Assembly (NCBI GenBank): GCA_035532375.1
Contig: DATKRC010000125.1
Coordinates: forward strand, 5,805-69,804
From: Acidimicrobiales bacterium
GTDB lineage: Bacteria; Actinomycetota; Acidimicrobiia; Acidimicrobiales; RAAP-2
Direction: 5' to 3'
DNA length: 64,000 nt
Shown: piece by piece, positions 14,589 through 60,152 of the stretch
Position numbering within the stretch: position 1 is the stretch's first letter
Layout: every line of letters starts with the position of its first letter
Position numbers and translations under genes: made by a program
The notes under the pieces: generated by a model
Databases searched by the model: none
Told to the model about the DNA's origin: nothing
What the model saw: the letters and a program-made list of their open reading frames with translations, nothing else

Positions 14589-15855
14589 GTAAGCCTCTGT
14601 ACTTTTTCTTGGCGGACTTCGTGGTGGGCTTCCTCTTCACTGCGGCCTCTTTGATTGGTGACTTCTTCGCGGGTGACTTCTTTATCGCCACCTTCTTGGC
14701 TGGTGACTTCTTAGCGGGTGCTTTCTTCGCTGCAGCTTTCCTGACTGTCATCTTCTTCGCGGCTGAATCCTTAGCCGGAGCTTTCGTGGCTGCAGTTTTC
14801 TTCGCGGGTGACTTCTTTATCGCCACCTTCTTGGCTGGTGACTTCTTAGCGGGTGCTTTGTTGGCTGCAGTTTTCTTCGCACCGGCTTGCTTGGTCGACT
14901 TCTTCTTTACGGGTTTCCGTGTGGCAGCTGGAGGCAACTCCAGGACGAACGCTTCGAGGTCAGCGGACACCATGCCGTCATAGAGTTTGATGCCCTCGAC
15001 CACGACTTTCCTGGCCGCGATGACGTCTTCCCATCGAGGACCCTCGCCTATTCCCGGAACCTCGAGCAGTAATGGCAAGTCGCGAAAATCTGGATGGCCC
15101 ACGAGTGCGGCCAGAGCCTCGGTGCCAATCGTCCCTTCGTCGATATTGGCGTGTCGGTCTCGGTTCCCACCCAACTCGATCTTGGAATCGTTCAAATGGA
15201 AGCAACGAAGTCGGCCCAAGCCGATGCTCATATCGATTTCGTGCACGAGTTTGTTCGTGGCGTGCGTACTCGAATAGTCGACTCCACTCGCCCAGAGGTG
15301 TTGCGTGTCAATGCACAGACCGATCCGTTCGTCGCCCCCGGTGGCGTCGATCAACGCCCTAATTTCTTCGAAACTGCGACCAACCGGGCCGTCGGCACCG
15401 GCCGCGTTCTCAATCAGAATCGGGCAGTCCTTGACGCCCGGTGGTGCCGAGTGCGCGGCGTTCAGCGCGCGCTTGAGGGCCTCAGCCATCTGCGGCAACG
15501 CCGCTTCGAAGCCGTTGCCTTTGTGCGAGCCCACGTGCAAGACCACGCCCGACGAGGCCATTCCGCGCCCCGTTGAGAGGTTGCTGATCAAGCAGTCGAC
15601 GGACTTCTCATAGAGTTCCTCGTCAGGTGTGGCCAAGTTGATCAAGTACGTCGCGTGACAGAACGTGTGCGACACGCTCGGATGATTCGCCTGCGCTTCG
15701 CGGTAGGCCTCGAGGACTTCCGGCGAGTACTGCGATGGCTTCCACATTCGGGGACTCTGCGTGAATATTTGAATGGACGTGGCGCCGATTTCGACGCCCT
15801 CTTCCAGTGAAGGGATGAGCTTGCCACCCCCGCGTACGTGTGCACCAATGTTCAT
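14581..15855 (-). CDS. nfo: Endonuclease IV with C-terminal histone H1-like Lys/Ala tail
   Basis: [32 protein letters not shown]; tail of AKK repeats. Confidence 0.9.
14663..14859. repeat. 62-bp direct repeat inside the nfo tail (14663-14724 and 14798-14859)
   Basis: Identical sequence encoding [21 protein letters not shown] twice. Confidence 0.85.
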
Positions 15856-43585: not shown

Positions 43586-44830
43586 GTGAGTGCTGACAAC
43601 CCCGATCTGGTCGCCGTTGTTGACAGAGCTCTGGATTGGCTGGTTGCCAGTGCCCGAGTCACTGAACATGGAGTCGCCTGGGCTGACACGCAAAGCGCCG
43701 ACGACCTCAATCCGAATCTTTACAACGGTGGCGCCGGAATCGTGATGACCCTCCTCGAGGCGTATCGACACTTCGACGATGATCGTTTCGGAGACCTCGC
43801 GCTCGCGACGAGTCGAGACCTTGGTGTAATGCTCGACACGTGGGAGCACTGTTCCCTTTATTTCGGGCTCACTGGAATGGCCGTAGCGCTCCAGGCTGTT
43901 CACGAGGTGTTGGGTGACTCGCTCGCTCGAGCGAACGCCTTAAAAGCATTGCATCTCGTGCGCGCTCGATTCGACGGCGAACGTTGGAGCGATCAGTTCG
44001 AACTCCTTGGGGGAAACGCCGGCATCGGTCTCGGCGCACTACGCGTAGGCGACACTGACCTGGCAGTTATGGCTGTGACGCCGTACATTCAACGAGCGGA
44101 GAAAACGAAGGCGGGCATCAATTGGGAGGTTCGAGAAGGAACTCCCGCGCGTTTCCACCATATTTCACACGGCACGCTTGGCATCGTCGAAGCGCTCGCC
44201 GCAGTGGGAGCTGCGGCGAAAAACCCCGACTTGATCGATCTGGCCCTCGCCGGGGCGTCGGACGTCGTCAGCCGCAACGAGTCGGAAGATGGCTTCTTGG
44301 TTCCGCATTCCGATCCGCAGCACCGACCCGAATTGATCGATCGTCATAGCTACGGCTGGTGTCACGGTCCAGCCGGTGACGCTCAAGTCTTTCGCCTCCT
44401 CGCCGCCGTGACCGGCGATGACAAATGGATGGAACTTACCGACCGATGTTGGCGAACGTTGTTGGAATCTGGCGTCCCCGAACGCGTGCGCCCCGGATTC
44501 TGGGACAACAGTGGCCGGTGCTGTGGAACCGCCGGCGTACTGGCCCTCGCCTGCGATCGATATGTCGAGAGGGATCAAGACCTCGCCTTTGCGCGCGTGC
44601 TGGTCCACGATGTTTGTCGGAGAGCGACGTTGGACGGCGAAGGTGCGCGGTGGTCGAACTTTGAGCACCGAGTCACGCCGAGCGAACTCGAACCGAGAAC
44701 TGGTTGGGCGATGGGCAACGCCGGCATCATCCGTGAGCTTCTGCGCTTTGCGCGAATTGTCGACGGTCGCTCGTCGGACTATTTCGTCCTCTGGCCCGAT
44801 CAGCCTGCCACTGGACCGCGCACGCTGTAA
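43586..44830 (+). CDS. Stand-alone lanthionine synthetase C-like protein
   Basis: LYNGGAG, SHGTLG, WCHGPAG, CCGTAG. Confidence 0.85.
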   Translation: MSADNPDLVAVVDRALDWLVASARVTEHGVAWADTQSADDLNPNLYNGGAGIVMTLLEAYRHFDDDRFGDLALATSRDLGVMLDTWEHCSLYFGLTGMAVALQAVHEVLGDSLARANALKALHLVRARFDGERWSDQFELLGGNAGIGLGALRVGDTDLAVMAVTPYIQRAEKTKAGINWEVREGTPARFHHISHGTLGIVEALAAVGAAAKNPDLIDLALAGASDVVSRNESEDGFLVPHSDPQHRPELIDRHSYGWCHGPAGDAQVFRLLAAVTGDDKWMELTDRCWRTLLESGVPERVRPGFWDNSGRCCGTAGVLALACDRYVERDQDLAFARVLVHDVCRRATLDGEGARWSNFEHRVTPSELEPRTGWAMGNAGIIRELLRFARIVDGRSSDYFVLWPDQPATGPRTL

Positions 44831-45558: not shown

Positions 45559-46968
45559 CTAACTGGAAGGAACTCCACGAAACGCCACGACGCGGTAAGA
45601 GGAAGCGAGCAGCAAGAGTCCGTCACCCACGCTCGGAGTCGTGAAGTCGTTAGCGAGAGTACCGACTGATGCCTGTTGGCGAATGTTCCCTGTGGCGTCG
45701 TCGAGTCCGTAGAGGACGCCATTCTTGCCCACCGTCCACACCAGACCGGCCGCCACGATCGGCGGACCGCCGCCCACACTCGCGCTCCAGAGCACTCGCA
45801 TTGACGCAGGTGACTTCGAAGTGTGCAGCGCGACCGGTCCGTTGAGACACGGCAGATATACCGTCGCACCTACGATGGCGCTGCCACCGTCGATGTCGTT
45901 CGAACACACGGAAGAAAGGCTCGCCTCTTGGTTTCCAATGCCGCCCAGGCGCGCTCTGTTCAAGAGATAGACGGTCGGCGACTTGCCCGCGACCACCACC
46001 TGGCCGTCGGCGAGCAGCACCGGTGCCGTCGTCATGTCGTAGTCAGACGCGTTATCCGATGCCCAGCTCGAAGGAGCGAAATACTGTTCGAGTCTTTCGG
46101 TCGAACTGAGTTCCAGCACCGAGTCACTGTCGTCGTACGCCTGACCGGCACTGTGCACCGAGCCATTGCCGACACTCACCCACACGTTGCCCTTCGCATC
46201 GACCACCGGCGCCGCCCCACCCATCCAGATGGCACCTTGGGAATCCCCCGCACGCTCGTCGACGGTAAATATGTCGGGCGCGGAGCCACCCTCTCGTACC
46301 GAGATGACCCGACCACGGTACGGCGAACAATCGCCGTAGTTCCCTCCCATCGCAAAGACGACTCGCCCACCATCGAGGTTGAGCCCAGTTCTCTGCAGCA
46401 ACGCCGCCGGATCGGAACCGGCTGGATCGACTCGCTCTCGCAACTCGAGGGCTCCGTTTTTCGTGTTCAGACCGACCAGAAAGTGTTCGGGGTGCCCACC
46501 CTTGAACTCGTCGGCGACGATGAAGATCTCTGCGCGCGACGGATCGATCACCGGAGTACCGGTGATCCCGACGCTGGGCGAAATGTTCCCGCACGGCAGT
46601 TCCGATGACGGAACGGCGGTGGCGAGGTGCCGCTTCCATACGACTGAACCGTTCGCGGCCGAAAGCGCGTAGACCGTGTCGTTCTCGGTCGCGACGAAGA
46701 CGTCACTCGAATAGACCAGCGGCTCGCCGTAGATCTCTCCACTCAACTCCGGTGAAGTCCACGCCCTCTTGGTCGTCGTGACCGACCTCAAGACCGAAGA
46801 GAACCCGGTGTCGAGAGCGTCCCCGTGATACACGGTCCACGAAGAATCATTCGTCGATGCGCCCGTTGACGGAGGTTGGGCGACGCCCAAGAAGACCGAC
46901 GTCACGACCGCTGCCATCGCCAACATCGTGGCCAGCGACCAGGAGGAACGACGGATTCGCATGGTCAC
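45559..46968 (-). CDS. Secreted PQQ-like beta-propeller protein
   Basis: Signal peptide; VYALSAANGSVVW and GITGTPVID repeats. Confidence 0.8.
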   Translation of the reverse strand: MTMRIRRSSWSLATMLAMAAVVTSVFLGVAQPPSTGASTNDSSWTVYHGDALDTGFSSVLRSVTTTKRAWTSPELSGEIYGEPLVYSSDVFVATENDTVYALSAANGSVVWKRHLATAVPSSELPCGNISPSVGITGTPVIDPSRAEIFIVADEFKGGHPEHFLVGLNTKNGALELRERVDPAGSDPAALLQRTGLNLDGGRVVFAMGGNYGDCSPYRGRVISVREGGSAPDIFTVDERAGDSQGAIWMGGAAPVVDAKGNVWVSVGNGSVHSAGQAYDDSDSVLELSSTERLEQYFAPSSWASDNASDYDMTTAPVLLADGQVVVAGKSPTVYLLNRARLGGIGNQEASLSSVCSNDIDGGSAIVGATVYLPCLNGPVALHTSKSPASMRVLWSASVGGGPPIVAAGLVWTVGKNGVLYGLDDATGNIRQQASVGTLANDFTTPSVGDGLLLLASSYRVVAFRGVPSS

Positions 46969-47280: not shown

Positions 47281-47420
47281 CCGAAGGAATGATGCGAGAG
47301 GAATCGGTCGAACTCGCCCGGTGATGTCGGATTCATCCAAGATGGAATTGATCCCTTGTCCGATTGATCGGTTTGGGCCGGTGGTTTCGGATCGGCATGT
47401 GCGTTGAAACGTAGGATTTT
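47281..47420. repeat. Composite repeat R8 (most degenerate; tRNA part nearly lost)
   Basis: CGGTCGAACTCGCCCGGTGATGTCGG...GGGCCGGTGGTTTCGG...TGAAACGTAGGATTTT. Confidence 0.65.
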
Positions 47421-47469
47421 CAGCTCAGGGGACTGAAATTGACATCACCATGCTGAAAAAAGGAGAAAA

Positions 47470-47835
47470 ATGGCCAAGTTCATAGTTTCGTACGGTGCCA
47501 GCGCTATGGACCACATCCCCGATGAGGACATGCCCGCGGTGGCCGATGCCGCTCACGCTGTCGTCGAGGAGATTCTGAACGCCGGCGTCTATGTGCTCGC
47601 CGGCGGACTGGAAAATCGGAGCTCGAGCATCGTAGCCACCGATGGGACCGTCACCGACGGTCCGGGACCGGAGGCCATTGGCGGACTCACGATTGTCGAC
47701 GTGTCATCGCGCGAGGAGGCGCTGAAGTGGGCTGCCAAGATCGCGGTCGCATGCCGCTGCGCGCAAGAGGTTTGGGAGATAGGATTCGACCCCGAACTTG
47801 AGGCGATGATCGACCAGGCCGGTGGAAGAAGTTGA
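47470..47835 (+). CDS. YciI/DGPF-like protein
   Basis: AGVYVLAGGL, DGTVTDGP, SREEALKWA; AGGAG RBS. Confidence 0.85.
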   Translation: MAKFIVSYGASAMDHIPDEDMPAVADAAHAVVEEILNAGVYVLAGGLENRSSSIVATDGTVTDGPGPEAIGGLTIVDVSSREEALKWAAKIAVACRCAQEVWEIGFDPELEAMIDQAGGRS

Positions 47836-47875
47836 CGTCCCCACAACACAAAATCGCGGGAATGTTACTCAGGTC

Positions 47876-47949
47876 GTAAAGCCGGTGGGGACCGAACCCA
47901 CGACCGAGCCATTACGAGGTGGAGCAAACGGTCGGACTAATCCGGTGGC
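47876..47949. repeat. Composite repeat R7 (arm truncated)
   Basis: GCCGGTGGGGACCGAACCCACGACCGAG..GAGGTGGAGCAAACGGTCGGACTAATCCGGTGGC. Confidence 0.8.
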
Positions 47950-48040
47950 TTTGCCAATCGTTGGTGATGGATGGACGACGCGTGGCTCGACAAAGAATTC
48001 TTACAATTTTCATAGAATTAAACCCTCTTGACCTGCTAAA

Positions 48041-48067
48041 TTGGCACTCGATGCCGGTGAGTGCTAG
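48041..48067 (+). promoter_or_regulatory. CIRCE (HrcA operator)
   Basis: TTGGCACTC-N9-GAGTGCTAG upstream of hsp20; TTGACC -35-like box at 48028. Confidence 0.85.
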
Positions 48068-48107
48068 CCGGCATCACGAGACAAATGAGTGATTAGGAGG
48101 TAAGGCA

Positions 48108-48548
48108 ATGCCGCTTCTTGTTCGTTCCGAACCATATCGAGACTTTGATCGACTCTTTCAGCAGCTCATGGGAGAGTCGAGTCGCCGAGTTACGTCCGTC
48201 GGAATTCCGATGGACGCCTATCGGAAAGAAGACCAATTCTTGCTTCAATTCGATGTGCCTGGCGTGGACTCCGAATCGATTGAATTGACAGTCGACAACA
48301 ACACGTTGACTGTCAAGGCAGAACGTCAAGCGCCCGTACTCGCCGAAGGCATCGAAGCGTTGGTCGCAGAGCGTCCCCATGGGGTTTTCACCCGTCAGAT
48401 ACTTTTGGGCGACAATCTCGACACATCGAAGATCGATGCGCAGTTTTCCGACGGAGTGCTCACTCTGGCAATACCCGTTGCGGAGGAAGCGAGGCCTCGG
48501 CGAATTGACATTCGGCACGATTCATCTAAAACAGAGATCCTGGCGTAA
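48108..48548 (+). CDS. Hsp20/alpha-crystallin small heat-shock protein
   Basis: PMDAYR, FDVPGV, ERPHGVFTRQ, DGVLTLAIP; AGGAGG RBS. Confidence 0.95.
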   Translation: MPLLVRSEPYRDFDRLFQQLMGESSRRVTSVGIPMDAYRKEDQFLLQFDVPGVDSESIELTVDNNTLTVKAERQAPVLAEGIEALVAERPHGVFTRQILLGDNLDTSKIDAQFSDGVLTLAIPVAEEARPRRIDIRHDSSKTEILA

Positions 48549-48561
48549 AACCAACTCTTGT

Positions 48562-48601
48562 TCCGGGGTGGCCCGAGGCTTCGGCATCGAGCCACCCCGG
48601 A
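48562..48601 (+). terminator. Hairpin after hsp20
   Basis: TCCGGGGTGGC...GCCACCCCGGA 11-bp stem; no U-tract. Confidence 0.6.
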
Positions 48602-48668
48602 GTATCTCGACACTGCGTGCAGGTGCTTTTCTTGTATCACGGCAATCCCAAAATCCGAGCATCGGAAA

Positions 48669-48855
48669 GTGGAGTCGAAAGGTATCGAAGCCACAACCGA
48701 GGGATTATGAGGTGGAAGCAAACGGTCGGACTGGTCGGGTGACGTCGGATCGATCCAAGATTGCCCTAATTCCACGGTCCGGCGATATCAGATCGTAGTT
48801 TGTCGAACTCGATTTCATCTCCTCACTGGGAGAACCGAGGGCAACGTGGGATTTT
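48669..48855. repeat. Composite repeat R6 (degenerate)
   Basis: ATCGAAGCCACAACCGAGGGATTATGAG-GTGGAAGCAAACGGTCGGACTGG...AACGTGGGATTTT. Confidence 0.8.
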
Positions 48856-49259
48856 CTTGATTGGAGTAATCACGGGCGGATTCGTCTCGGCGGCCGTCGT
48901 ATCAGTTATGCCACCGGACACCAAGACTTCATCTATGCCGAACCTGATTGTCGTCGAGGGCCCCGCGCAACGAGTCTTCGAACATGCACTGCCATATCTG
49001 CGAAATTTTATGAATCCTTGATTGTCGGTTGATGAATGGGGGTCCAAGATGACGCAGCGGACCCGGGAATCCCAATTCGAAGGACTCCGAGAAACTATTT
49101 TTATATCGCACGATCTTTCACAATGCGCTCGCAAGGGAGTCAAGTTCGAAGGATCAGGAAACGGGGCCAAAGAATTAATTGCCGTGCTTCAACAGGTTGG
49201 GCTGCAACACGGTGGTGCAACGCCATAAGTTGTTGCACCTTGACAGAACGAGAAGAGGG

Positions 49260-49712
49260 ATGACCAACACTATTCACAATCTGAAGCGCCACAGGGATGC
49301 TGGGGAGATAAACGGTTTCACGTTGATCGAAGTCCTCATCGTCATCGTTGTTCTCGGTATCTTGGCTGCCGTCGTGATCTTCGCTCTCGGTGACATCACC
49401 GGCAAGACTGCAGTCGCTGCCTGCCAGGCTGACGGAGTAACGGTTACAACGGCGATTGCCGACTTCAATGCTCAGAACGCGAAATCCGCAGTGACTACGG
49501 CAGGGCTCTTAAATGGCACCTCCGCGAACGGCAATAGCCCGTATATTCAGTCGTGGCCGAGTAACACTCCTCACTACGCTTTCGAGCTTTCGACAGCTGC
49601 CGGTAGGCCCGTGTTAAAAGTCTCCATTACCCCTGCAGGAGCGGTCGTTGCATCTGCACAGGCCAATTACAAGCCTTACGCCGGTCCCGCTTCTTGCCTC
49701 GGCGTTTCATAA
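49260..49712 (+). CDS. Type IV pilin-like protein
   Basis: Prepilin motif G-FTLIEVLIVIVVLGILAAVV. Confidence 0.9.
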   Translation: MTNTIHNLKRHRDAGEINGFTLIEVLIVIVVLGILAAVVIFALGDITGKTAVAACQADGVTVTTAIADFNAQNAKSAVTTAGLLNGTSANGNSPYIQSWPSNTPHYAFELSTAAGRPVLKVSITPAGAVVASAQANYKPYAGPASCLGVS

Positions 49713-49752
49713 ACCGGCAACGACGTGAATTAAATTGACCGATCGATTTCCC

Positions 49753-49917
49753 AGAGCCGGTGGGGATCGAACCCACGACCGAGGGATTATGAGCTGAGGG
49801 CGAACAGTCGGACTGGTCTGGTGACGTCGGTTTCGTCCGAATATCACTGCAACAGTTGTCCGGTGACGTCGGATTGGTCTGGAGACGTCGGTTTGGTTTG
49901 TGGGATGAAACGTGGGA
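49753..49917. repeat. Composite repeat R5
   Basis: GCCGGTGGGGATCGAACCCACGACCGAGGGATTATGAG + arm ending GTGGGATGAAACGTGGGA. Confidence 0.9.
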
Positions 49918-50012
49918 CCTTCTGAGAGCGAATCACCGCGTGCGAGTTTGTTTCACATGCCGGAGTCGGCGCGATGCGACCCCGGCCGTCGATCACTTAC
50001 CTTCAGCGGTGT

Positions 50013-50636
50013 TCATGGTCCCGTGTCGTCTGAGACAACCTTCCAACCTTTGAGCGGCATCCTCGCGAGAGTTGCGAAAGTAGATGCAGCCATTGTTTCC
50101 GGGTAGGGCCTGTGCTTGACGTGCACCATCACTGCCGCAGTCGCATTCTTAGGGACCACGCCGACGTAGCCGCTCTTGGAACCGTCAAGATTCCTGCACC
50201 AGTGCACACCTATTGACTGCTGTTTGACATTGAGCACCGTCTCTTCGTTCTTGTAGACAGAGATTGGTGTGAGATGCCTGGCGGCGTAGTACTTCTTCAA
50301 TGCCAAGACGACATTCGCGGATATAGGCTTCACGGCCGACTTTGCGATAATGGGACAGGCGGGTAGTGAAGTGCCCCCTAGCGCCGGAGTTGACCCTGTG
50401 AACATAGTGAGCACCATTGCGACGGTCAACACAACCACGCCGCCCGCACGACGGACGCTTGCTTTCGGCGTCAACTCAATATCGGACTTTTGCTGCGAAG
50501 TCAGCCCCTGACACCGAGCGCCTCGGAAGCGCATCTGGTCCAACTGTTCGTAAGGCGCGATCTTCTTGATTTTGGCGACTCTTCCAAACGTAGTGAAGCA
50601 TTTCCCTGACCTGTTCTTGAGCACCGCAGCCTCCAT
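50013..50636 (-). CDS. Hypothetical secreted protein (true start probably near 50480)
   Basis: Signal-peptide-like RRAGGVVVLTVAMVLTMFTGSTPALG; C-terminal GWKVVSDDTGP. Confidence 0.55.
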   Translation of the reverse strand: MEAAVLKNRSGKCFTTFGRVAKIKKIAPYEQLDQMRFRGARCQGLTSQQKSDIELTPKASVRRAGGVVVLTVAMVLTMFTGSTPALGGTSLPACPIIAKSAVKPISANVVLALKKYYAARHLTPISVYKNEETVLNVKQQSIGVHWCRNLDGSKSGYVGVVPKNATAAVMVHVKHRPYPETMAASTFATLARMPLKGWKVVSDDTGP

Positions 50637-51076
50637 TCGTTAGACATTCACGCCATGATCTCGCGCACAATCGATATTCAATTTTGAAGGTAGCCAAAAG
50701 GAAATTGACTAGGGCCAAACGTCACAAGTGTCAGCGTCTCGGGCGTGAAGAATCTCTCTCCCCCCCGTTTCTTGTCGCAGTGGGGATAATCTTCCCGGTC
50801 CGATTTGTCCGGACTGGCGATCGTTCTTGCCTCAATTTCAATCCACTGCATTGACGGCAGGATGGCTGGACGGTGGAATGAGAATCGCTGTCGGTGGGTA
50901 TCTTGCGAGACCCCAGTCACCACGCGAAGATGGGCATAGCATCACCCGGAGCCGTTCCGACAAGAAACAGCGGCATGTCAAGGATCAGCTGACGTTGCGT
51001 GAAGGATCAGGTTGCGATGTCAACAATCCGGTGATGGCGAAATGTCAACCATTAACCGTTACAAAAAAGATTCTTC

Positions 51077-51242
51077 GTAGGGCCGGTGGGGATCGAACCC
51101 ACGACCGAGGGATTATGAGTTGGGAGCAAACCGTCGGAATGGTCCGGTGACGTTAACCATCCGAATTTCACTCCATCCATTGTCCGGTGGCGTCGGAATC
51201 GTCCGGTGGTGTCGATTTGGTATTTGAGAGATCAGGTGGGAT
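51077..51242. repeat. Composite repeat R4
   Basis: Exact match to the tRNA 3' half (GTAGGGCC...TTATGAG) followed by the arm. Confidence 0.9.
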
Positions 51243-51280
51243 GTCTCGGTTAGTTGACACCGATTCTGTACACTTCCTCG

Positions 51281-51742
51281 GTGATCGAAGAACGACTCAA
51301 TGAGCTTGGAATTGTCCTTCCACCGGTGTTCCCTCCCGCCGGCAACTACCTCGGCTGCGTCATCGTGGACGACATGGTTTACGTCGGCGGTCATGGACCG
51401 ATCGCGGGTTCGGACATCATTCGAGGAAAGGTCGGTGTCGACTTGACGTTGGATGAGGCGCAGGAAGCCGCGCGGGCAACCGCACTGTCAATCCTCGCAA
51501 CGCTAAAGGCAGAACTCGGTGATTTGGATCGAATTGAACGATTCGTCAAAGTCTTAGGGATGGTCAACGTCGCACCAGGGTTTAACCAAACTCCGGCTGT
51601 AATTGACGGCTGCTCGGATCTCCTTGTCAAAGTGTTCGGCGAAGCGGGACAACACACGCGGAGTGCAGTCGGACTAGCCGAGCTGCCTTTCGATATCGCT
51701 GTTGAGATTGAGTTAATTGCAAAACTGAAACCCGCTCGATAA
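51281..51742 (+). CDS. RidA/YjgF family protein
   Basis: YVGGHGP, GKVG, HTRSAVG..LPFDIAVEIE; leaderless TACACT-N6-GTG. Confidence 0.9.
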   Translation: MIEERLNELGIVLPPVFPPAGNYLGCVIVDDMVYVGGHGPIAGSDIIRGKVGVDLTLDEAQEAARATALSILATLKAELGDLDRIERFVKVLGMVNVAPGFNQTPAVIDGCSDLLVKVFGEAGQHTRSAVGLAELPFDIAVEIELIAKLKPAR

Positions 51743-51821
51743 CTGCATTTGTAGGGCGAACTTGGCGATAGAGGTCGGCGAAGTGACCTAGCATCACCAT
51801 CACCTTCACCACTGTTGGCCC

Positions 51822-52184
51822 ATGAATGGAAGGGGACAAGTGTCCACTATCACCGAACTCATCGATAGTGAGGTTGCGGCGTATAGAGACCGCGATCTCG
51901 ACAAGTATCTCAGTTTCTTCGCCGAAGATGTTGTTGTGACCGATTTCGAAGGGAATGTGCTGATGCGAGGAATCGAAGGGCTGAGGTCCAACTACCAGCC
52001 GCTATTTGAGAACAGTCCGGATCTCACAGTCGAAATCGTTTCGCGCATTGAGTCGGGAGGGTTCGTGGTCGATCTGGAGCACCTTGACGGTTTCATAAAT
52101 CCTCCGTATCCAGAAACTTTCGACGCCGCCGTTATCTATCAAGTGAAGGTCGGAAAAATCTCAGCAATGAAAATCCTGCTCTAA
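51822..52184 (+). CDS. SnoaL/NTF2-like protein
   Basis: AYRDRDLDKYLSFFAEDV, FVVDLE, IYQVKVGKI. Confidence 0.8.
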   Translation: MNGRGQVSTITELIDSEVAAYRDRDLDKYLSFFAEDVVVTDFEGNVLMRGIEGLRSNYQPLFENSPDLTVEIVSRIESGGFVVDLEHLDGFINPPYPETFDAAVIYQVKVGKISAMKILL

Positions 52185-52306
52185 ACAACTCCCGTCCGTG
52201 ATCCGGGGAAAAGCTTTCAGAGCCGTTCAGAAATCGGAGCACGCTCGATCTCTGTCCCCCAGCTCGCTTGTCCCCTTTAGTAAGTCCTATTTCTTTGCCA
52301 TCGAGC

Positions 52307-52475
52307 AGGGCCGGTGGGGATCGAACCCACGAGCGAGGGATTATGAGGTGGGAGCAAACGGTCGGACTGGTCCCGTGGCGTCAGATTGGTCCGAAAAAGT
52401 CAGAGTTCTTCGTCTGGTGGTGTCGGTTTGGTCCGGTGGTGTCGGTTTGGTATGTGGGATGAAACGTGGGATTTT
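52307..52475. repeat. Composite repeat R3
   Basis: tRNA 3' half (1 mismatch) + full arm ending GTGGGATGAAACGTGGGATTTT. Confidence 0.92.
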
Positions 52476-52499
52476 GAATCGATACGGACCGATTTCAAA

Positions 52500-52817
52500 A
52501 TGCTCAACCTCGTCTTGGTTCGCATGGGCTACCCGCCCGTGATCATCTACAAGCGGTATCGAAGCAAGTACCTTCGATCCCTGCAGCGGGCGGACGACGG
52601 CGACCCAGGTGCTCTGGGTGAGTTGATCGCGCGCGCGATTACAGACAACGTTTATCGCTTCGTAGTTCCTGCGGTGGCCGGACCGAACCGGTTGGTTCCG
52701 CTCGCTGCTTTAGCTACGAAAGATCGGAGCGTCGTTTCGCTCCGAGCGACGATCAAACGCGGACGACTACGAGCACAGAAGGGGCCCGACGGCCAGTGGT
52801 GCAGTTCTCGCGCGTGA
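52500..52817 (+). pseudogene. C-terminal fragment of a Fic-family protein
   Basis: LNLVLVRMGYPPVIIYK..YLRSLQRAD.GD is the segment that normally follows the Fic HPFxxGNGR motif, which is missing. Confidence 0.65.
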
Positions 52818-52999
52818 GTTGACGAATATGTTGCGAGCGAACACCGACGAAATTAGATCTTCAACTTGGTAGCGTCCCTTCCTCGACTCTCTACACAACG
52901 GTCGGCCGAATCGAAAAGAGAGTAGCAAGTAACCCTGGACGGCAGGCGTGGGATTTTAGAGATAGCAATAGATACTTAGTTTGATGCGAAGATTGATCG

Positions 53000-55774
53000 T
53001 CAACCTATTTGCGTTCGCCCAAGCGAGAAATCAACCAATTGGTCTTGAGATAGGCGCCGACCCACGTCAGCCAATCGTTCAAACTCTTCGACTCCGAGCG
53101 ATTCAATCAGTGATTCCCGATTGTGCTCGCGCATCTCTATTTCTATTGGGGTCCAGTAGCCCGCCCCGTCGAGGACCCTGGTTTCAATTGCATCGTGTGA
53201 TCCAGTGAGTTTGGCGCCTCGTACAAAGTCGCCACGCGCCGTTGCACAGCACGCCAAGCTGAAAACACACCAGAAGATTACCCTTTCGTCCAATCCAATA
53301 CGTCGAGCAGTGAACAGCGCACGGCGACTGAATTGCTCAGACTGCTGAATATCTCCTGACAAAAATAGGGTGACGCCAAGATTCGACAAAAGCAGTTGGA
53401 TGTGAAATTGGGACCCGATCTGCTCAGCTATTGCCATGGCCTCCATAGTCAAGGATTTGGCTTCATTTAAGTCGCCGGCGAATAGACCGCCCGTGATCGA
53501 CAACCCCATAAGGGCGGTACAAATTCTGAACAGGTTTCCCTGTCGTCGAACCTCCGCTAGGGCGAGCGAGTAATACTCGTGCGACGTCGGGAAGTCGTTC
53601 GCAGTGAACGCTCTCATTAAGAATGCATCGCCCAAGACGCTCACATCGCCCGACGTACGCGCGAGGTCAACCGCCTTAATTCCGAGACGGACACCTGCTT
53701 CGTTGTCTCCTCTCTCACGAGCCTCGAACGCCATCCATCCAGTGGCATTGGCCTCGAGTGTCTTGTCCTGAGAGTTACGAGCCATATTTAATGCGATTTC
53801 GAGATAATGACGCGCTATCCCTGAACTAAATTTGTCGGGCGACGCTGTGAACATCATTTCTGCGAGCAAGACCGCAACCCTACCTCGAAGTGATTCGGGG
53901 AGATCCTCACCTCTCTCCAAGACACTCGCCATCCAAGCAATTGGGACCTCTTTCACACGAGACGTTAGAAATTGGACGAGGTCGATTCCAATCCGCAGCA
54001 CTTTCTCGTCATCGCGTTCTTCGTCTAAATAGTGTCGCCACGCGCTTTGGATGTTGTCCCACTCATTATCGATTCGCCGCATCCATAGACCCTGCTCCGG
54101 ACCTTTGAGGAAGGGTTCCGCGCTTTCGCAAAGCTCGAAATAATATGCCGCGTGACGACCTCGAACTTCGCGCGCGACGATCTCACCGTCAATTTGAAGG
54201 AGTTGGTCGGCCGCGTACTGGCGAATCGTCTCGAGCAATCTGTAACGCAAGGCTGTCGAGGTGCGTTCGCCAGTTACGAGGCTTTTATTGACAAGTGAAC
54301 TGACGATGTCTGCCACGTCAAAAGATTCAAGTGCGTCGGTGGAGCAGACATATTCTGCCGCCTTGAGATCAAACCCTCCGACGAACACCGAGAGGCGACG
54401 TAGTGCACTGCGTTCACGCTCGTCAAGCAAGTCATAGGACCAAGCGACCATCGCACCCAGCGTTTGCTGGCGAGGCAACGCGTTTCGACTCCCTCCGGTG
54501 AGAAGACGGAATCGTTGGTCGAGGCGTTCGTGCAGATCCTCCAAGGACATCGACGAAAGCCTCGATGCAGCTAACTCGAGGGCCAAGGGAATACCATCGA
54601 GGCGCCGGCAAATTGAGGCAATGATTGGTGCGGCGTCGTCATCAAAGGTGAAGGTCGAGTCATACGAATTCGCACGCGCAAGGAAAAGTTCAACTGCATC
54701 TGAACCTTCGAGATCAACAAAGTTGTCGACGTCTTCAGACGGCAGCGACATCGATCGAACCCGATAGATCTGCTCACCTTCGACACCAAGTGGTTCGCGT
54801 GAAGTTGCCACGATAGTTACCCGTGGACATCGATGGCCGATTTGTTCGACCATCTTGGCCGTGGCATCGATTAGGTGCTCACAGTTGTCAAGGACAATCA
54901 AGACATTTTGACTCTTCAGCGTGACGAGCAAGGATTCCAGAGGAGAGCGGTCCGGCTGTTGACGCATCCCCAAGGCATTCAGCGCGGTTGATGGAACTTG
55001 GTTGGGATCACTAATTGGGGCGAGGTCCACGAACCAAACTCCCTCACCACTGCCGTCCAGCATTTCGGCGGCGACCTGAAGAGCGATTCGTGTCTTACCG
55101 GATCCGCCCGCGCCAGTCAGGGTTATTAGTCGAGATTCGACTACCAACCGTCGTACTTCAATCATCTCGACGTGACGCCCGATCATTGGACTCAGAGAAG
55201 TGGGCAAGTTGTTCGCTAACTCTGGATTGTCCAGAGATCGCAACGGCGGAAAATTCGCCTCGAGCCCTTCAGCGACAAGCTGAAAGATCGTCTCTGGACG
55301 CCCAAGGTCCTTGAGTCGATGAGAACCGAGTTCGCGCAACGCAAGATCGCTAGACAATGAAGTTTCGACTAGGCCGGCCGATGATGACGAAAGGAGAATT
55401 TGGCCACCGTGACCCACCGCCGCAATCCGTGCCGCTCGATGGACTTCATAGCCAACGAGTCCGGTCGATTTCTCCGATGCTTCACCCGTATGGATTCCCA
55501 TGCGTACTTTGAGAATCTCCGCGCCGGGCCAATGGTGCATTGCCAAATTTCGTTGAATACCTAGCGCCGCCGAAATACAAGCGCTAGGGGAAGTGAACAC
55601 CGCGAAAAAGGCGTCACCTTGCGTGCCTTCCTCTTTCCCACCGTGGTCAACGAGTTCGTTGCGAACGATTTGATGATGATCCGCAAGGACTTTGGCGTAC
55701 GCGTCATCACCGAGACGTCGTAGCATCGCCGTTGACTGCTCGATGTCAGAGAAAAAGAAGGTCAGAGTCTCAAT
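53000..55774 (-). CDS. Class III nucleotide cyclase - STAND ATPase - TPR-like protein
   Basis: TFFFSDIEQST (upstream of ATG55726), GDAFF, RMGIHTG, GAGGSGKT, LDNCEH, LDGIPLALELAA. Confidence 0.88.
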   Translation of the reverse strand: METLTFFFSDIEQSTAMLRRLGDDAYAKVLADHHQIVRNELVDHGGKEEGTQGDAFFAVFTSPSACISAALGIQRNLAMHHWPGAEILKVRMGIHTGEASEKSTGLVGYEVHRAARIAAVGHGGQILLSSSSAGLVETSLSSDLALRELGSHRLKDLGRPETIFQLVAEGLEANFPPLRSLDNPELANNLPTSLSPMIGRHVEMIEVRRLVVESRLITLTGAGGSGKTRIALQVAAEMLDGSGEGVWFVDLAPISDPNQVPSTALNALGMRQQPDRSPLESLLVTLKSQNVLIVLDNCEHLIDATAKMVEQIGHRCPRVTIVATSREPLGVEGEQIYRVRSMSLPSEDVDNFVDLEGSDAVELFLARANSYDSTFTFDDDAAPIIASICRRLDGIPLALELAASRLSSMSLEDLHERLDQRFRLLTGGSRNALPRQQTLGAMVAWSYDLLDERERSALRRLSVFVGGFDLKAAEYVCSTDALESFDVADIVSSLVNKSLVTGERTSTALRYRLLETIRQYAADQLLQIDGEIVAREVRGRHAAYYFELCESAEPFLKGPEQGLWMRRIDNEWDNIQSAWRHYLDEERDDEKVLRIGIDLVQFLTSRVKEVPIAWMASVLERGEDLPESLRGRVAVLLAEMMFTASPDKFSSGIARHYLEIALNMARNSQDKTLEANATGWMAFEARERGDNEAGVRLGIKAVDLARTSGDVSVLGDAFLMRAFTANDFPTSHEYYSLALAEVRRQGNLFRICTALMGLSITGGLFAGDLNEAKSLTMEAMAIAEQIGSQFHIQLLLSNLGVTLFLSGDIQQSEQFSRRALFTARRIGLDERVIFWCVFSLACCATARGDFVRGAKLTGSHDAIETRVLDGAGYWTPIEIEMREHNRESLIESLGVEEFERLADVGRRLSQDQLVDFSLGRTQIG

Positions 55775-55862
55775 TAGTGCATCGTAGGAGACGGCGCCGC
55801 TTCAAGTTCAGAAAATCACTTCCTAGGTATTCCCCTTATTCCCAATACTTCTTGGCGTGGGT

Positions 55863-56032
55863 TGGTAGGGCCGGTGGGGATCGAACACACGACCGAGGGA
55901 TTATGAGGTGGGAGCAAACGGTCGGACTGGTCCGGTGGCGTCGGTTTTGTCCGAAAAAAGCAGATTCCTTCGTCCGGTGGCGTCGGTTTAGTCCGTGGCG
56001 TCGGTTTGGTACGTGGGATGAAACGTCGGATT
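55863..56032. repeat. Composite repeat R2
   Basis: TGGTAGGGCC...TTATGAG (includes the CCA end, 1 mismatch) + full arm. Confidence 0.92.
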
Positions 56033-56085
56033 GGGACCGCGGCAAGCCCAGATTGAAGAGCGTGGGGAAAAATCCAGCGGAAAGG

Positions 56086-56496
56086 TTAACGCTGGAAATA
56101 AACGTCAGCGTTGTCTACCAATTCTCGAGCGAACTTCACTGCCCTTTGGGCGCTCGCTCGTGAAAAGTCTTGGAACCCGTAGTGCGCCGCGTCCTTCAGG
56201 TCCAAAAGCCGAAGCAAGGTCTTCTTGCACTTTGGCCCATCGAAAAATGCAGCTTCGAGTAGTTCCGTGGCTTGACGATGATCTTCACCTCGAAAACACT
56301 TCTTCAGCCCTTTTCCGCAAATTGCATCTGCAGCTGCTATCCCAGCCAGCACTGCGTTGCCGGCTGCCACACCGGAGAATTCACGACGTTCATCTCCCAG
56401 TATCAGTTCTGCAGCTTCGAGATAAGCACGCGCCGTATTAAGACGTTGTCGAGCCTCGCGAATTGTGCAAACAACGGTTCGGATTCTCGTAGTCAT
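56086..56496 (-). CDS. HEPN-domain protein (putative toxin)
   Basis: AVLAGIAAADAIC..H..LLDLKDAAHY; translationally coupled to the MNT gene. Confidence 0.7.
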   Translation of the reverse strand: MTTRIRTVVCTIREARQRLNTARAYLEAAELILGDERREFSGVAAGNAVLAGIAAADAICGKGLKKCFRGEDHRQATELLEAAFFDGPKCKKTLLRLLDLKDAAHYGFQDFSRASAQRAVKFARELVDNADVYFQR

Positions 56497-57218
56497 TGGC
56501 CGATCCGCCCCTTCGGGTATTGATATTTAATAGGGGCAAGTTCGTCATAGAGTCGAATCTCATCTTGAGCAATGTTCCGATAAATTGCGCTCTGAGCGCG
56601 TCGATTTTCTGACCATTCAATTGCCGTAATACTGACGACTTGAAGCGGATTCCCAGTCCATCGCCGCACCAAATCGTGCAAGTTGTCGACGTTCGACTCC
56701 CATTTCTTGATTTGCGCTTCTGAAATCACCCTCGTCGAAATGACTTCAACCCACACACCTAGAGCCGACCAGATTGATTTGTTCCTTTGTGCCTCATTTA
56801 TTTCAGAAATGGTTGAAGGTCGTACTACCAGCAAATCAATGTCACTGTCATTGTCTCCGTCGTGACGAGCAGCGGAGCCAAAGACACTTGCGTAGAGAGG
56901 TCGAACAGTCCATCGTTCGACCTCTCGAGCAAACCTTCGCCAGAGCTCCGAACGTATTTCCGCCATTTCGGCTGCAACTGCTGCCGCTACGTGGTCCCGG
57001 TTCAAGCTATAAACGCGAGTGTTTCCCAGTTCAGTACACTCGACGACACCTTGTGAGAGAAGTCGCCCCAAAGATTTGCGGATTCCAATCTCGGAACCAC
57101 GTGCCGATATGCTCGCAACTTCAGAAACAGTCAGGGGCTTTCCGGCACTGGCGAGGACAACAAGAACGGGTCCGTCCAGCGACGAAGTAACTGCCATTGA
57201 AGGGTCAGTGAGATTCAT
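56493..57218 (-). CDS. HTH + minimal nucleotidyltransferase (putative antitoxin)
   Basis: N-terminal wHTH; VFGSAAR..DSDIDLLVV. Confidence 0.8.
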   Translation of the reverse strand: MNLTDPSMAVTSSLDGPVLVVLASAGKPLTVSEVASISARGSEIGIRKSLGRLLSQGVVECTELGNTRVYSLNRDHVAAAVAAEMAEIRSELWRRFAREVERWTVRPLYASVFGSAARHDGDNDSDIDLLVVRPSTISEINEAQRNKSIWSALGVWVEVISTRVISEAQIKKWESNVDNLHDLVRRWTGNPLQVVSITAIEWSENRRAQSAIYRNIAQDEIRLYDELAPIKYQYPKGRIGQ

Positions 57219-57273
57219 TATCTGTAAGTATAGAATCTTATTCTTTTAGATAGCAACCTATACTTTTGGAAAT

Positions 57274-57445
57274 TAGTAGGGCCGGTGGGGATAGAACCCA
57301 CGACGGAGGGATTATGAGGTGGATGCAAACGGTCGGGGTGGTCCGGTGGTGTCGGAACCATCCGGATTTGAAAGAAAGCTCGTCCGGTGGTGTCGTTTTG
57401 GTCCGGTGATGTCGGATTGGTCTGTGGGATGAAATGTGGGATTTT
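57274..57445. repeat. Composite repeat R1
   Basis: tRNA 3' half (3 mismatches) + arm ending GTGGGATGAAATGTGGGATTTT. Confidence 0.92.
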
Positions 57446-57652
57446 CGAAGGCAATCATGCAGTGTCGAGGTTCTTGGCGAAGGACCGGCATCAACAATCC
57501 ACGACTGACGGATTCGAACGGCAAGGTCCGAACGAAGCCGACTCTCTTGGTCAGGGGATACTATTCTCCGACCAGGGCACCGTTTTGCTCTCGTGTCAGT
57601 ATGTGTGGTAAGCGCTGCATTTCGCCAGTTCAAAAAGTCGGAGGGGCATTCC

Positions 57653-59785
57653 GTGGTTAGCTACCTGGAAGATTATCCCCTCTCGTGGAACCACCTGCTT
57701 GAGGTGCTGCCCGACGGAATTGCCTTCGTCGACGAGCACGGGACAATTCGTCAAGCGAACGAACGCCTCACGGTCCTGACTGGCTACACGCGCGACGAGC
57801 TGGTCGGTCAGGCCGTCGAGATGCTCGTGCCTTCGCCGGAACGAGATGCACACGCCGCACATCGCGACGAGTACTCCCGAGACCCGAAAGCACGTGAGAT
57901 GGGGAGCGGTCTGGATCTCACGCTCTTGTGCCGCGACGGCAACGAACTACCGGTTGAAATCGCCCTCTCGCCCCTCGCCGTTGACGGCAAAGAGTGGGTT
58001 GTGGCGATGATCCGTGATGACCGCGCCCGGAGGGCAGCAGAGCAAATCCGCACCGAGTTCGAACTACATGCGCTGGCCACCGCCGAGGCGCTCTCGGAGA
58101 GCGAGCGGCGCTTCCGCCTCGCGTTCGAGAACAACGTGGCCGGCATGGTTTTCACCGATTTCGAAGACAGGATTCTGGTAGTCAACGACGCCTTCTGTCT
58201 AATGGTCGGACGCACTAGGGAAGAACTGCTCGGGCACGACTCGACTCCATTCACCTATCCCGAGGACCTGGGCATCAGCGAGGAGGCCCACCGACGCGCG
58301 ACCTCCGGTGAGGCCGATCAAGTCAGATATGCCAAGCGCTACGTGCACAAGGACGGTCGGGTCATCTTTGTCGAGGTGCACAGGTCCACCGCCCGCGACC
58401 CCGAAGGAAAAACGCTCTACTTTGTCATCTCGGAGCGCGACATCACCGAGGAGCGGGCGCTCAACGCCCAGCTCTCCCACCAAGCACTGCACGACCCGCT
58501 CACGGGACTCGCGAACCGAATGCTCTTTGAGGACCGGCTCTCCCATGCGCGCGCAAAGGTCGTTCGCCAAGGCGGGATGAACGCGGTGTTGATGGTGGAC
58601 CTCGATGACTTCAAGGGGGTAAACGACACACTCGGACACTTCGTTGGCGACAAGTTGCTTGTGGCGATTGCGCGCCGCTTCGACCAGGTGACTCGTTCCT
58701 CGGACACGCTGTGTCGCTTCGGTGGCGACGAGTTCCTCTACCTGGCCGAGGGACTAACCTCCCCGGCTCAGGCCGAGCAGGTGGCCATACGTCTTCTTGG
58801 TGCGCTCGCCGAACCGTTTTCCATCGATGGGGCGCACCTCGCACAGCACGCGAGCATCGGAGTCGTGGTCTGTGACGAAACGAGCACGGACTACACCGAA
58901 TCTATCCGGGACGCCGACGTCGCCATGTACGAGGCCAAACGCGAGGGCAAGGGCCACCATGTTCTCTTTACTTCCAACATGCGCCAACAGGTGACCGGCC
59001 GCTTCGCGCTCTTGCAAGAGTTGCGCCGGGCTCTCCAAGCCGGCGGAATTTCGATGCACTACCAGCCCATTATCAATCTCATTACGACCGAGGTGGTTGG
59101 CTTCGAGGCGTTGATGCGCTGGCAGCACCCTGATCGGGGATGGGTTCCCCCCAACGAGTTCATACCGCTGGCCGAACAGAGCGAACTCATCTTGGAGCTC
59201 GGCGCCTTCGCTTTGCTCGAGGCCGTAAACGTGGCCAGTTCCTGGGAACGTACCGGTACTCAGACCAGTCAACCTTACGTGACGGTCAACCTCTCTGCGC
59301 ACCAGTTTCACGACCCGGGCCTGACGGCGATGATTGAGGGGGTCTTGCGAACGAGCGGTCTTGCACCAGAGTTCCTGATCATCGAGATCACCGAGAGCGT
59401 GACGCTGCTCGACGTCGCTGAGACATTGCGCGTGATTGAACACCTCAAACGTCTCGGGATTGGCATCGCGCTCGACGACTTCGGCACGGGGTACTCCTCA
59501 CTCTCCTACCTCGCGCTGCTGCACCCGAGGATCATCAAGATTGATCAGTCCTTCGTCAGCCCGCCCCACGAGAGCGCCCGCAACGACACACTGCTCGAGA
59601 CAATCGTCTCGCTCGGCCACAAACTCGACATGATCATGCTCGCCGAGGGGATCGAGACGTACGCACAACTCGAGCGCCTGCGCAACCTCCATTGCGACTT
59701 CGGCCAGGGCTACCTCTTCTCACCCGCCGTACCGGCCGACGAGGTGGAGTCCCTGCTCGCCCGCGTGCGAGCTAAATGGGGGTAG
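57653..59785 (+). CDS. PAS-PAS-GGDEF-EAL c-di-GMP enzyme
   Basis: Two PAS domains, HDPLTGLANR, GGDEF, EAL, DDFGTGYSS. Confidence 0.95.
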   Translation: MVSYLEDYPLSWNHLLEVLPDGIAFVDEHGTIRQANERLTVLTGYTRDELVGQAVEMLVPSPERDAHAAHRDEYSRDPKAREMGSGLDLTLLCRDGNELPVEIALSPLAVDGKEWVVAMIRDDRARRAAEQIRTEFELHALATAEALSESERRFRLAFENNVAGMVFTDFEDRILVVNDAFCLMVGRTREELLGHDSTPFTYPEDLGISEEAHRRATSGEADQVRYAKRYVHKDGRVIFVEVHRSTARDPEGKTLYFVISERDITEERALNAQLSHQALHDPLTGLANRMLFEDRLSHARAKVVRQGGMNAVLMVDLDDFKGVNDTLGHFVGDKLLVAIARRFDQVTRSSDTLCRFGGDEFLYLAEGLTSPAQAEQVAIRLLGALAEPFSIDGAHLAQHASIGVVVCDETSTDYTESIRDADVAMYEAKREGKGHHVLFTSNMRQQVTGRFALLQELRRALQAGGISMHYQPIINLITTEVVGFEALMRWQHPDRGWVPPNEFIPLAEQSELILELGAFALLEAVNVASSWERTGTQTSQPYVTVNLSAHQFHDPGLTAMIEGVLRTSGLAPEFLIIEITESVTLLDVAETLRVIEHLKRLGIGIALDDFGTGYSSLSYLALLHPRIIKIDQSFVSPPHESARNDTLLETIVSLGHKLDMIMLAEGIETYAQLERLRNLHCDFGQGYLFSPAVPADEVESLLARVRAKWG

Positions 59786-59982
59786 AGGGCTCGCGCTGTC
59801 ATCCTGCAGTGAACCACTTCAGTGGGGCTAGTACATCTTCGTTGTGGCGACAGTGCTCTTCCGAGTTGGCTCGTGACGGGAGCATGCCCTGTATTGCGGG
59901 ACATGCAAACTGCATCGCTCAGGGCGGTCGCATTGTGGAGATTGACTCCTGAATGGACTTGTCCGTCAGTTTTAGACCGGAC

Positions 59983-60058
59983 TGGTAGGGCCGGTGGGGA
60001 TCGAACCCACGACCGAGGGATTATGAGTCCCCTGCTCTAACCACTGAGCTACGGCCCT
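59983..60058 (-). tRNA. tRNA-Ile2 (CAT, lysidine type)
   Basis: Cloverleaf AGGGCCG/CGGCCCT-A-CCA; loop CTCATAA; body resembles ileX rather than tRNA-Met. Confidence 0.9.
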
Positions 60059-60079
60059 TCAAAAGACAACGGGCTAAAG

Positions 60080-60152
60080 CTCCCAGAGCAGGACTCGAAC
60101 CTGCAACCTAGCGATTAACAGTCGCTTGCTCTGCCAATTGAGCTATCTGGGA
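60080..60152 (-). tRNA. tRNA-Asn (GTT)
   Basis: TCCCAGA/TCTGGGA-G acceptor stem, loop CTGTTAA, no encoded CCA. Confidence 0.95.

Follow-up and report, generated by a model that had tools for sequence, protein, structure and literature searches.

An array of integrase-less attR cassettes downstream of a tRNA gene in a soil Acidimicrobiales genome, and a family of probable helper elements in its congeners

The window analysed here, a stretch of 64,000 nucleotides from the Acidimicrobiales assembly GCA_035532375.1 (contig DATKRC010000125.1, positions 5,805 to 69,804), originates from a soil actinobacterium and contains eight small gene units without an integrase, which are stacked downstream of one tRNA gene and measure 0.6-3.6 kb (Table 1). 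Comparative sequence analysis indicates that this array belongs to a real and apparently active genus-wide cassette system, whose units are exchanged as wholes between species. The repeat that bounds each unit has, judged from its sequence, the geometry of an attR attachment site, with a P arm followed by a duplicated tRNA half. Moreover, integrases with the matching arm motif were identified in helper elements of congeners. We lean towards the view that the units are attR-only cassettes that are mobilised in cis by a visiting helper and then left behind.

The anchor of the array is an intact tRNA(CAT) gene, which ARAGORN labels as Met. It is likely tRNA-Ile2, by elimination, because an initiator-type and another CAT tRNA are present elsewhere in the genome. 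All copies of the tRNA 3' half start at tRNA position 32 within the anticodon loop, and the crossover point likely lies within this loop. Read in tRNA orientation, an arm without tRNA sequence, about 125 bp long, precedes each half; in it, two direct ATCCCAC sites are followed by about four 19-bp repeats with one spacer and then by the core. A previous reading of the sequence alone had described eight copies, each made of a tRNA half and a shared arm. This description fits the five copies nearest to the tRNA, which have full-length arms and 0-3 mismatches in the 43 bases of the half (57274, 55863, 52303, 51075 and 49749), and is only approximate for the three decayed copies (9 and 6 mismatches at 48667 and 47874, respectively). 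Even inside the array the arms are only about 77-90% alike. A hidden ninth junction at 52870-52965 is 84% identical over 55 bp to the P' region of the genome G181, with no integrase behind it. The GC content of the array is mostly 51-55% and that of the left part of the window about 62%. The array is unlikely to be an assembly chimera because it is covered by four public sequencing runs, with an even depth of about 10 in three of them, and because contigs bridge the distal junctions. One X1 contig diverges from the window at a repeat and may represent a variant array.

The attC sites of integrons form a conserved single-strand hairpin with RYYYAAC/GTTRRRY ends, and the repeat had been compared to such a site. 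This comparison is not supported: five arms, folded on both strands, did not form a hairpin (z -1.8 to +0.4) and contained neither attC motif, and the cognate integrase is an arm-binding enzyme of the phage type rather than IntI. It scored 34 bits on TIGR02249, for which the cut-off is 265, and matched an arm-binding domain. No Rfam family matched the arm. Integron cassette genes mostly share one orientation and a common promoter, but the cargo here is not co-oriented, as the longest open reading frame (ORF) lies forward in 81 and reverse in 89 of 170 units. The spacing of the arm sites is well kept: in 93 of 126 arms, site and core lie 124-125 bp apart, and the remainder are mostly shorter in steps of about 20 bp.

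For a broader view, 184 non-redundant units were collected from 53 stretches, from which exact duplicates and gaps of more than 15 kb had been dropped. Their median length is 1424 bp (121/184 do not exceed 2 kb), 73 of 179 consist of a single ORF and the median coding share is 82%. The left unit junction is sharp and falls at tRNA positions 74-76. According to their arms, 133 units are of type A, 32 of type B, which has a TGCTACTC pair, and 19 of neither type. An integrase is encoded by only 5/184 units, all of them at position 1 next to the tRNA and one of them frameshifted. The other 179 contain no piece of an integrase, replication protein (Rep) or excisionase (Xis), with a weak helix-turn-helix (HTH) match in two. 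At least 94 integrase-less units are located at position 2 or beyond, and none of these is autonomous. The earlier idea of circles that each carry an attP does not agree with this anatomy: the units have the P arm only, and the intact P' pair of ATCCCAC sites, which within the set occurs only in the two A-type helpers, is missing in all 131 integrase-less A-type units. With a P' profile, a decayed P' was detected in one homologous pair of integrase-less units, together with three weak matches, and none was detected in 182 control windows. L212 retains a P' arm without an integrase, and seven integrase-less units retain a B-type P'-like site. A single toxin-antitoxin-like family with a PIN domain accounts for most of the integrase-less units that retain a P'-like site (G005, G006, G018, G202 and G324, B-type), as if excision-capable units persisted only with addiction genes. 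It was also observed that 12/184 units, but only one control window, have short tandem re-iterations of about 12 bp of the last tRNA bases directly behind the tRNA end (for instance G212, G216, L049, L080 and L097). They also occur on contigs C118 and C121 of the window's own genome, and homologous units differ in having them.

No recombinase was found inside or beside the array of the window, and none of the 11 array ORFs that were scanned for domains encodes an integrase, transposase, replication or conjugation function, as had been stated before. The tyrosine recombinase that was expected next to the same arm was found in congeners, in helper elements of 5-9 kb that encode a tyrosine integrase, Xis, a repressor and a rolling-circle Rep. 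An integrase close to the arm was found in one genome (G190/G285), directly behind tRNA-Ile2. This helper of 5.5 kb has an ATCCCAC pair about 46 bp past the tRNA end, on the P' side, and encodes a tyrosine integrase of 395 aa that matches an arm-binding domain, a G2P-type Rep, an HTH_17 Xis-like protein and an Xre repressor; cargo and an A-type arm complete the element. In a genus-wide integrase search, 30 best loci were examined; relatives of the integrase were located behind several tRNAs, and nearly all had a paired P' motif matching an array arm type. The ten integrases that have ATCCCAC as their P' motif group in a single clade (97/95), which divides into an Ile2 and a Lys(TTT) group of five each, and this split explains why the same arm occurs at both tRNAs. 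One of the five Ile2 integrases comes from the unpublished genome G303; the claim rests on the other four and L210. The B arm type has its own helpers (G346, G277), which carry RepSA (PF20199), whereas the A-type helpers carry a G2P-type Rep (PF23343). Every helper examined has the arm-site pair on both sides. A cargo-free unit of about 220 bp consisting of half, arm and core was also encountered (G277, L177:7998-8247), which resembles a microCIME, the smallest form of the cis-mobilisable elements (CIMEs) discussed below.

The arm is present in 13/24 genomes of the same genus and in 0/16 genomes from other families. Across all species genomes the arm pattern was found in 77 stretches, all titled as Acidimicrobiaceae, Acidimicrobiales or Actinomycetes metagenome-assembled genomes. 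The core pattern, with the tRNA counted, was matched in 159 of 194 congeners, with at least four matches in 36 and at least seven in 13, and the longest stack has 17 cores including the tRNA and hence up to 16 units. A family-wide search, in which five candidates were scored per genome and mostly the tRNA itself was returned, has little bearing on arrays outside the genus. Among congeners the flanks of the array are common and the contents mostly differ. Variable insertions of 1.4-2.6 kb between tRNA-Asn and tRNA-Ile2 are present in G005, G006, G023 and G194 and absent in the window.

When 183 units were compared, they fell into 89 clusters, 63 of which are singletons. Homologous pairs have both junctions in common in 18 cases, the left only in 49, the right only in 28 and neither in 140. 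That whole units are exchanged between species is shown by their identity, which lies above that of the adjacent sigma-factor/dnaG genes in every pair that could be matched: 93.5 vs 72.1%, 90.5 vs 70.9%, 86.0 vs 69.6%, 95.4 vs 84.5% and, over 512 bp only, 95.3 vs 84.6%. For unit 2 of the window, which is common to G005 (82%, with a B-type arm there) and G020 (88%), the values are 82.5 vs 70.4% (G005) and 88.4 vs 81.2%. Some unit pairs with 99-100% identity had no core-gene comparison, and binning could account for them. Furthermore, core mismatches increase with the position in the stack (rho 0.37, p 2e-5, n=124), while arm-site mismatches barely increase (rho 0.18, p 0.05). The sequence-only reading is supported in that the units are non-autonomous, show turnover between species, are added at the tRNA, with decay rising with distance, and need a tyrosine integrase from elsewhere, whose family was found in congeners.

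How could units with a single arm move? A helper would integrate at the anticodon loop of the tRNA, ahead of the resident units. Int and Xis would then pair the helper attL with the attR of a unit. In this way the unit would leave on the excised circle, whose attP would be complete, being composed of the P arm of the unit and the P' arm of the helper. After transfer, the circle would integrate at the tRNA of the new host, and the helper would excise at its own attR, thereby dropping the unit at position 1. Repetition of this cycle would build a polarised stack with the newest unit nearest to the tRNA. Units lacking P' would be unable to excise without an adjacent helper and would therefore accumulate. 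A cargo-bearing helper that loses its P'-int-rep-xis end by deletion is a probable source of new units, as are, in addition, fusion and fission of units; signs of such a deletion are the hidden junction in the window and L212. Excision, transfer and drop-off are steps that we infer. Mobilisation in cis followed by drop-off is favoured because helpers have both arms, because circles of units would lack P', because A-type helpers extend to a further attR and because the G346 helper is fused, over its last 585 bp and at 99% identity, to the right end of a unit that occurs free elsewhere. In all three complete A-type helpers (G190, G324 and L210), an inner arm with a dead core is followed by 1.0-3.3 kb of cargo and an intact attR, which may be a trace of the joint use of helper attL and unit attR.

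Several observations weigh against this cycle. The 90% complete assembly of the window's own genome contains no cognate helper, as its best integrase is only 51% identical and no Rep or Xis homolog was found. The helper ORFs that were scanned, in one scan 28 of the 68 listed, showed no conjugation, capsid or FtsK/TraB translocase domain, and viral contigs gave no match to the arm pattern or the arm-core pattern and no relative of the helper integrase. The attP-junction pattern had no match in metagenome contigs, which is weak evidence as the pattern was exact; the read contigs revealed neither an excised circle nor an empty site, and they are uninformative since their joints lie inside repeats with at most 31 bases on the short side. 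Shared units are often in different order and not in blocks, which fits mini-circles equally well. A fragment of an integrase was not found in any integrase-less unit, so that intermediates for an origin by deletion are few. The collection was gathered by arm and core patterns and is biased toward arm-bearing loci and intact arms. The conservation of the arm sites in 10 homologous integrase-less pairs (differing bases: 7/140 in the ATCCCAC sites, 68/400 in the 40 bases outside and 59/180 in the spacer) was calculated from hand-picked, non-independent pairs, with register shifts of 1 base in three of them inflating the spacer figure, and arm conservation could also come about by arm replacement or conversion among repeats.

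The units could instead be free non-autonomous mini-circles of P arm, core and cargo that are excised and integrated singly by an integrase acting in trans, with P' being dispensable. The compactness of the units, the differing unit order between species and the conserved P arm sites would suit such circles, and the seven integrase-less units with a B-type P'-like site could excise in trans. If true, integration of one-armed circles would break with the model of an attP with two arms. However, all helpers examined have pairs on both sides, as do characterised attP sites: the attP of mv4 has arm-site pairs on both arms (bioRxiv 10.1101/2023.11.06.565760), and so have mycobacteriophage attP sites of the same enzyme class (PMC3203893). 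Since the A-type units lack the P' pair and no circle was seen, we regard free movement in trans as unlikely, and as less likely than mobilisation in cis.

It is also rather improbable that the units are inert deletion remnants, i.e. leftovers of autonomous elements whose site-specific movement has ended. A single deletion in a helper would indeed yield the anatomy of a unit because the helper cargo adjoins the P arm, P' remnants are present in the window, in one unit pair and in L212, and decay grows distally. Remnants, however, would not be expected to occur as whole units with both junctions common to several species and far above core-gene identity, or to keep arm sites and their spacing in integrase-less pairs. 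They also do not account for the absence of any integrase, Rep or Xis piece from 179 units, for the 94 or more non-autonomous units at position 2 or beyond, or for helpers that reach downstream attRs. Finally, homologous recombination between the repeats of about 170 bp after DNA uptake, with the integrase mattering only at the origin of units, is very improbable: direct repeats do flank every unit, the same cargo is joined to an A arm in the window but to a B arm in G005 and some units are fused with a lost boundary (12 internal arm matches in 10 units, two of them helpers), yet the arms within the array are only about 77-90% alike, what is conserved are chiefly the integrase-type sites and their spacing and not the whole arm evenly, and the polarised decay indicates entry at the tRNA.

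Homologs in other arrays exist for 5/8 units of the window (Table 1). The gene pair of unit 2 is MNT-HEPN-like, as judged by its arrangement, and its 136-aa ORF has no family match. The resemblance of the truncated ORF at 52477 to Fic was seen only by eye and has no database support. The cargo pool of the collection comprises 222 ORFs in 159 clusters. A Pfam match was obtained for 95 of the 148 representatives scanned (of 157), mostly small hydrolases, methyltransferases, glyoxalases, reductases, regulators, transporters and toxin-antitoxin-type domains; six are insertion sequence proteins and none of the 148 is a phage integrase (PF00589). A Hen1-Pnkp RNA repair pair was also observed as unit cargo (L118:8829-10223 and L055:579-3251). 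Outside the array, the window encodes a LanC-like protein (43586-44830), a homolog of which (73%) is carried by an array unit of G193, and 15-bp tandem repeats at 14603-14905 code for a Lys/Ala-rich low-complexity stretch.

In the window's own genome (G000), the A-type arm is not confined to this locus, as it also occurs on tRNA-Lys(TTT) halves of the contigs C2, C3 and C38. Further stacks are located at Lys(CTT), Lys(TTT), Gly(CCC), Glu(TTC) and Val(GAC), mostly with their own paired arm motifs, some of which match integrases of the same clade. An integrase at tRNA-Lys(TTT) on contig C67 was rejected as the trans-acting enzyme because it has another arm motif and is 30% identical to the cognate integrase. 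In this tRNA-Lys(TTT) element (C67:56173-58856), the reading frame of the integrase crosses the tRNA 3' half in antisense, and C-terminal remnants of the integrase lie behind Lys cores in three relatives. On the contigs C36, C99 and C100, tyrosine recombinases occur in tandem groups of two or three, which we take to be RIT-element-like.

Table 1. Coordinates of the array, its units and flanking genes in the window, and location of further tRNA-anchored stacks in the same genome (G000)
Feature	Position	Strand	Description
tRNA-Asn(GTT)	60079-60152	-	Upstream neighbour of tRNA(CAT)
tRNA(CAT)	59983-60058	-	Intact; array anchor (attB)
Unit 1	57447-59982		PAS-PAS-GGDEF-EAL gene 57593-59785(+); homologous units (87%) in arrays of two other species
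attR 1	57274-57446	-	P arm, ATCCCAC pair 57424-57442, 19-bp repeats; 3' half 57274-57318, 2/43 mismatches
Unit 2	56035-57273	-	HTH-nucleotidyltransferase 56493-57218 and 136-aa ORF 56086-56496
attR 2	55863-56034	-	Arm and 3' half, 1/43 mismatches
Unit 3	52966-55862	-	Cyclase-NB-ARC-TPR (STAND NTPase) gene 53000-55726
Hidden ninth junction	~52870-52965	-	Single A-type arm site joined to remnant of B-type helper P' arm
ORF fragment	52477-52817	+	5'-truncated; adjoins arm of attR 3
attR 3	52303-52476	-	Arm, ATCCCAC pair 52454-52472; 3' half, 2/43 mismatches
Unit 4	51247-52302	+	RidA/YjgF 51254-51742, SnoaL-like 51822-52184; both with homologs in other arrays (80-89%)
attR 4	51075-51246	-	ATCCCAC pair degenerate; 3' half perfect
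Unit 5	49922-51074	-	207-aa ORF 50013-50636, no family match
attR 5	49749-49921	-	Arm and 3' half, 3/43 mismatches
Unit 6	48856-49748	+	Pilin-like ORF 49260-49712, N-methylation motif; homologs elsewhere in arrays (71-80%)
attR 6	48667-48855	-	Decayed, 9/43 mismatches; arm disrupted at 48712-48855
Unit 7	47954-48666	+	Hsp20 48108-48548
attR 7	47874-47953	-	Decayed, 6/43 mismatches; arm reduced to ~35 bp at 47919
Unit 8	47423-47873	+	YciI-like 47470-47835; homologs in G018 (86%) and G136 (78%)
attR 8	~47281-47422 (arm 47296-47422)	-	Arm present, core reduced to a faint remnant; distal end of the array
PQQ/BamB-repeat gene	45559-46968	-	Distal flank, conserved in G005, G018, G020 and G194
Lys-CTT stacks	G000 contigs C77, C82, C121, C52, C1, C84, C117		
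Lys-TTT stacks	G000 contigs C38, C3, C45, C23, C17, C50, C2, C94		
Gly-CCC stacks	G000 contigs C76, C86, C3		
Glu-TTC stack	G000 contig C16		
Val-GAC stacks	G000 contigs C98, C118		

Integrons are polarised arrays of recombinase-free cassettes with one or two genes, which encode small enzymes, regulators and toxin-antitoxin-like proteins. In outcome, the arrays described here are alike in their polarity, the lack of recombinase genes in the cassettes and the kinds of cargo. They differ in lacking the attC hairpin and core motif as well as IntI and any resident integrase, in the even orientation of their genes and in the tRNA anchor. It is conceivable, though doubtful, that they constitute a tRNA-anchored system of independent origin that parallels the integron, with long-lived attR-only cassettes circulating genus-wide at many tRNAs, one integrase clade per arm type, possibly one-armed free circles and continual packaging of new chromosomal genes. 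The helper resembles the actinomycete integrative and conjugative elements (AICEs) of the pSAM2 type and elements with a rolling-circle Rep in its Int-Xis-Rep module at a tRNA, but differs in its size of 5-9 kb. AICEs are marked by an FtsK/SpoIIIE translocase; none was detected among the helper ORFs scanned, which in one scan were 28 of 68.

TIGER and Islander islands must contain one or more integrase genes and measure 2 kb or more (PMC12424338). The units lack an integrase and 121/184 do not exceed 2 kb, so that island catalogues based on integrase and size cannot see them, although the accessory genes that they carry form a large and diverse pool in the Acidimicrobiia of peat and soil. Literature searches, in which subscription papers were thinly covered, uncovered no report of attR-only cassettes or of arrays like these in Acidimicrobiia. 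The tycheposon islands of Prochlorococcus are also formed by sequential integration at a tRNA, with older elements outward and partial tRNA copies left behind (bioRxiv 10.1101/2020.12.28.424599). There, however, the distal remnants are degenerated and contain fragmented integrases, whereas the units described here are compact, free of integrase fragments, equipped with conserved arms and exchanged whole.

It had been suggested that the array does not correspond to a described system. This was too strong, as CIME accretion and the module-less ssrA islands of Dehalococcoides are published analogues. At ssrA, many tandem units bounded by direct repeats likewise lie behind one RNA gene in a region of up to 100 kb; 15 islands without an integration module were suggested to be cis-mobilisable and 16 keep the module (PMC3146451). 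That system uses a serine integrase and a 20-bp repeat, whereas a tyrosine integrase and a 45-bp half with a 125-bp arm are found here, the units measure about 1.4 kb and the module is present in 5/184. Streptococcal CIMEs lack recombination and transfer genes, have a size of 1.2-13 kb (microCIMEs, 130-220 bp) and reside at the target gene's 3' end (PMC5704250; PMC7563491). As in the present arrays, CIMEs are stacked and most decayed farthest out, and they are moved by an adjacent element, as is proposed here; 179/184 units have no int, rep or xis match, and helpers with the same motif occupy position 1 in congeners. In contrast, CIMEs by definition keep attL and attR, while the units keep only the P arm (attR), and the composites of S. 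salivarius consist of two or three elements, while up to 16 units and several tRNAs per genome are involved here. Moreover, the helper has no detected conjugation machinery and is usually absent. As the cognate integrase, Xis and both arms are known, the pile-up of integrase-less islands at tRNAs becomes directly testable. We class the array with CIME tandem accretion, as a variant and not as a category of its own, and what is new are its scale, the one-armed anatomy of the units and the identified helper.

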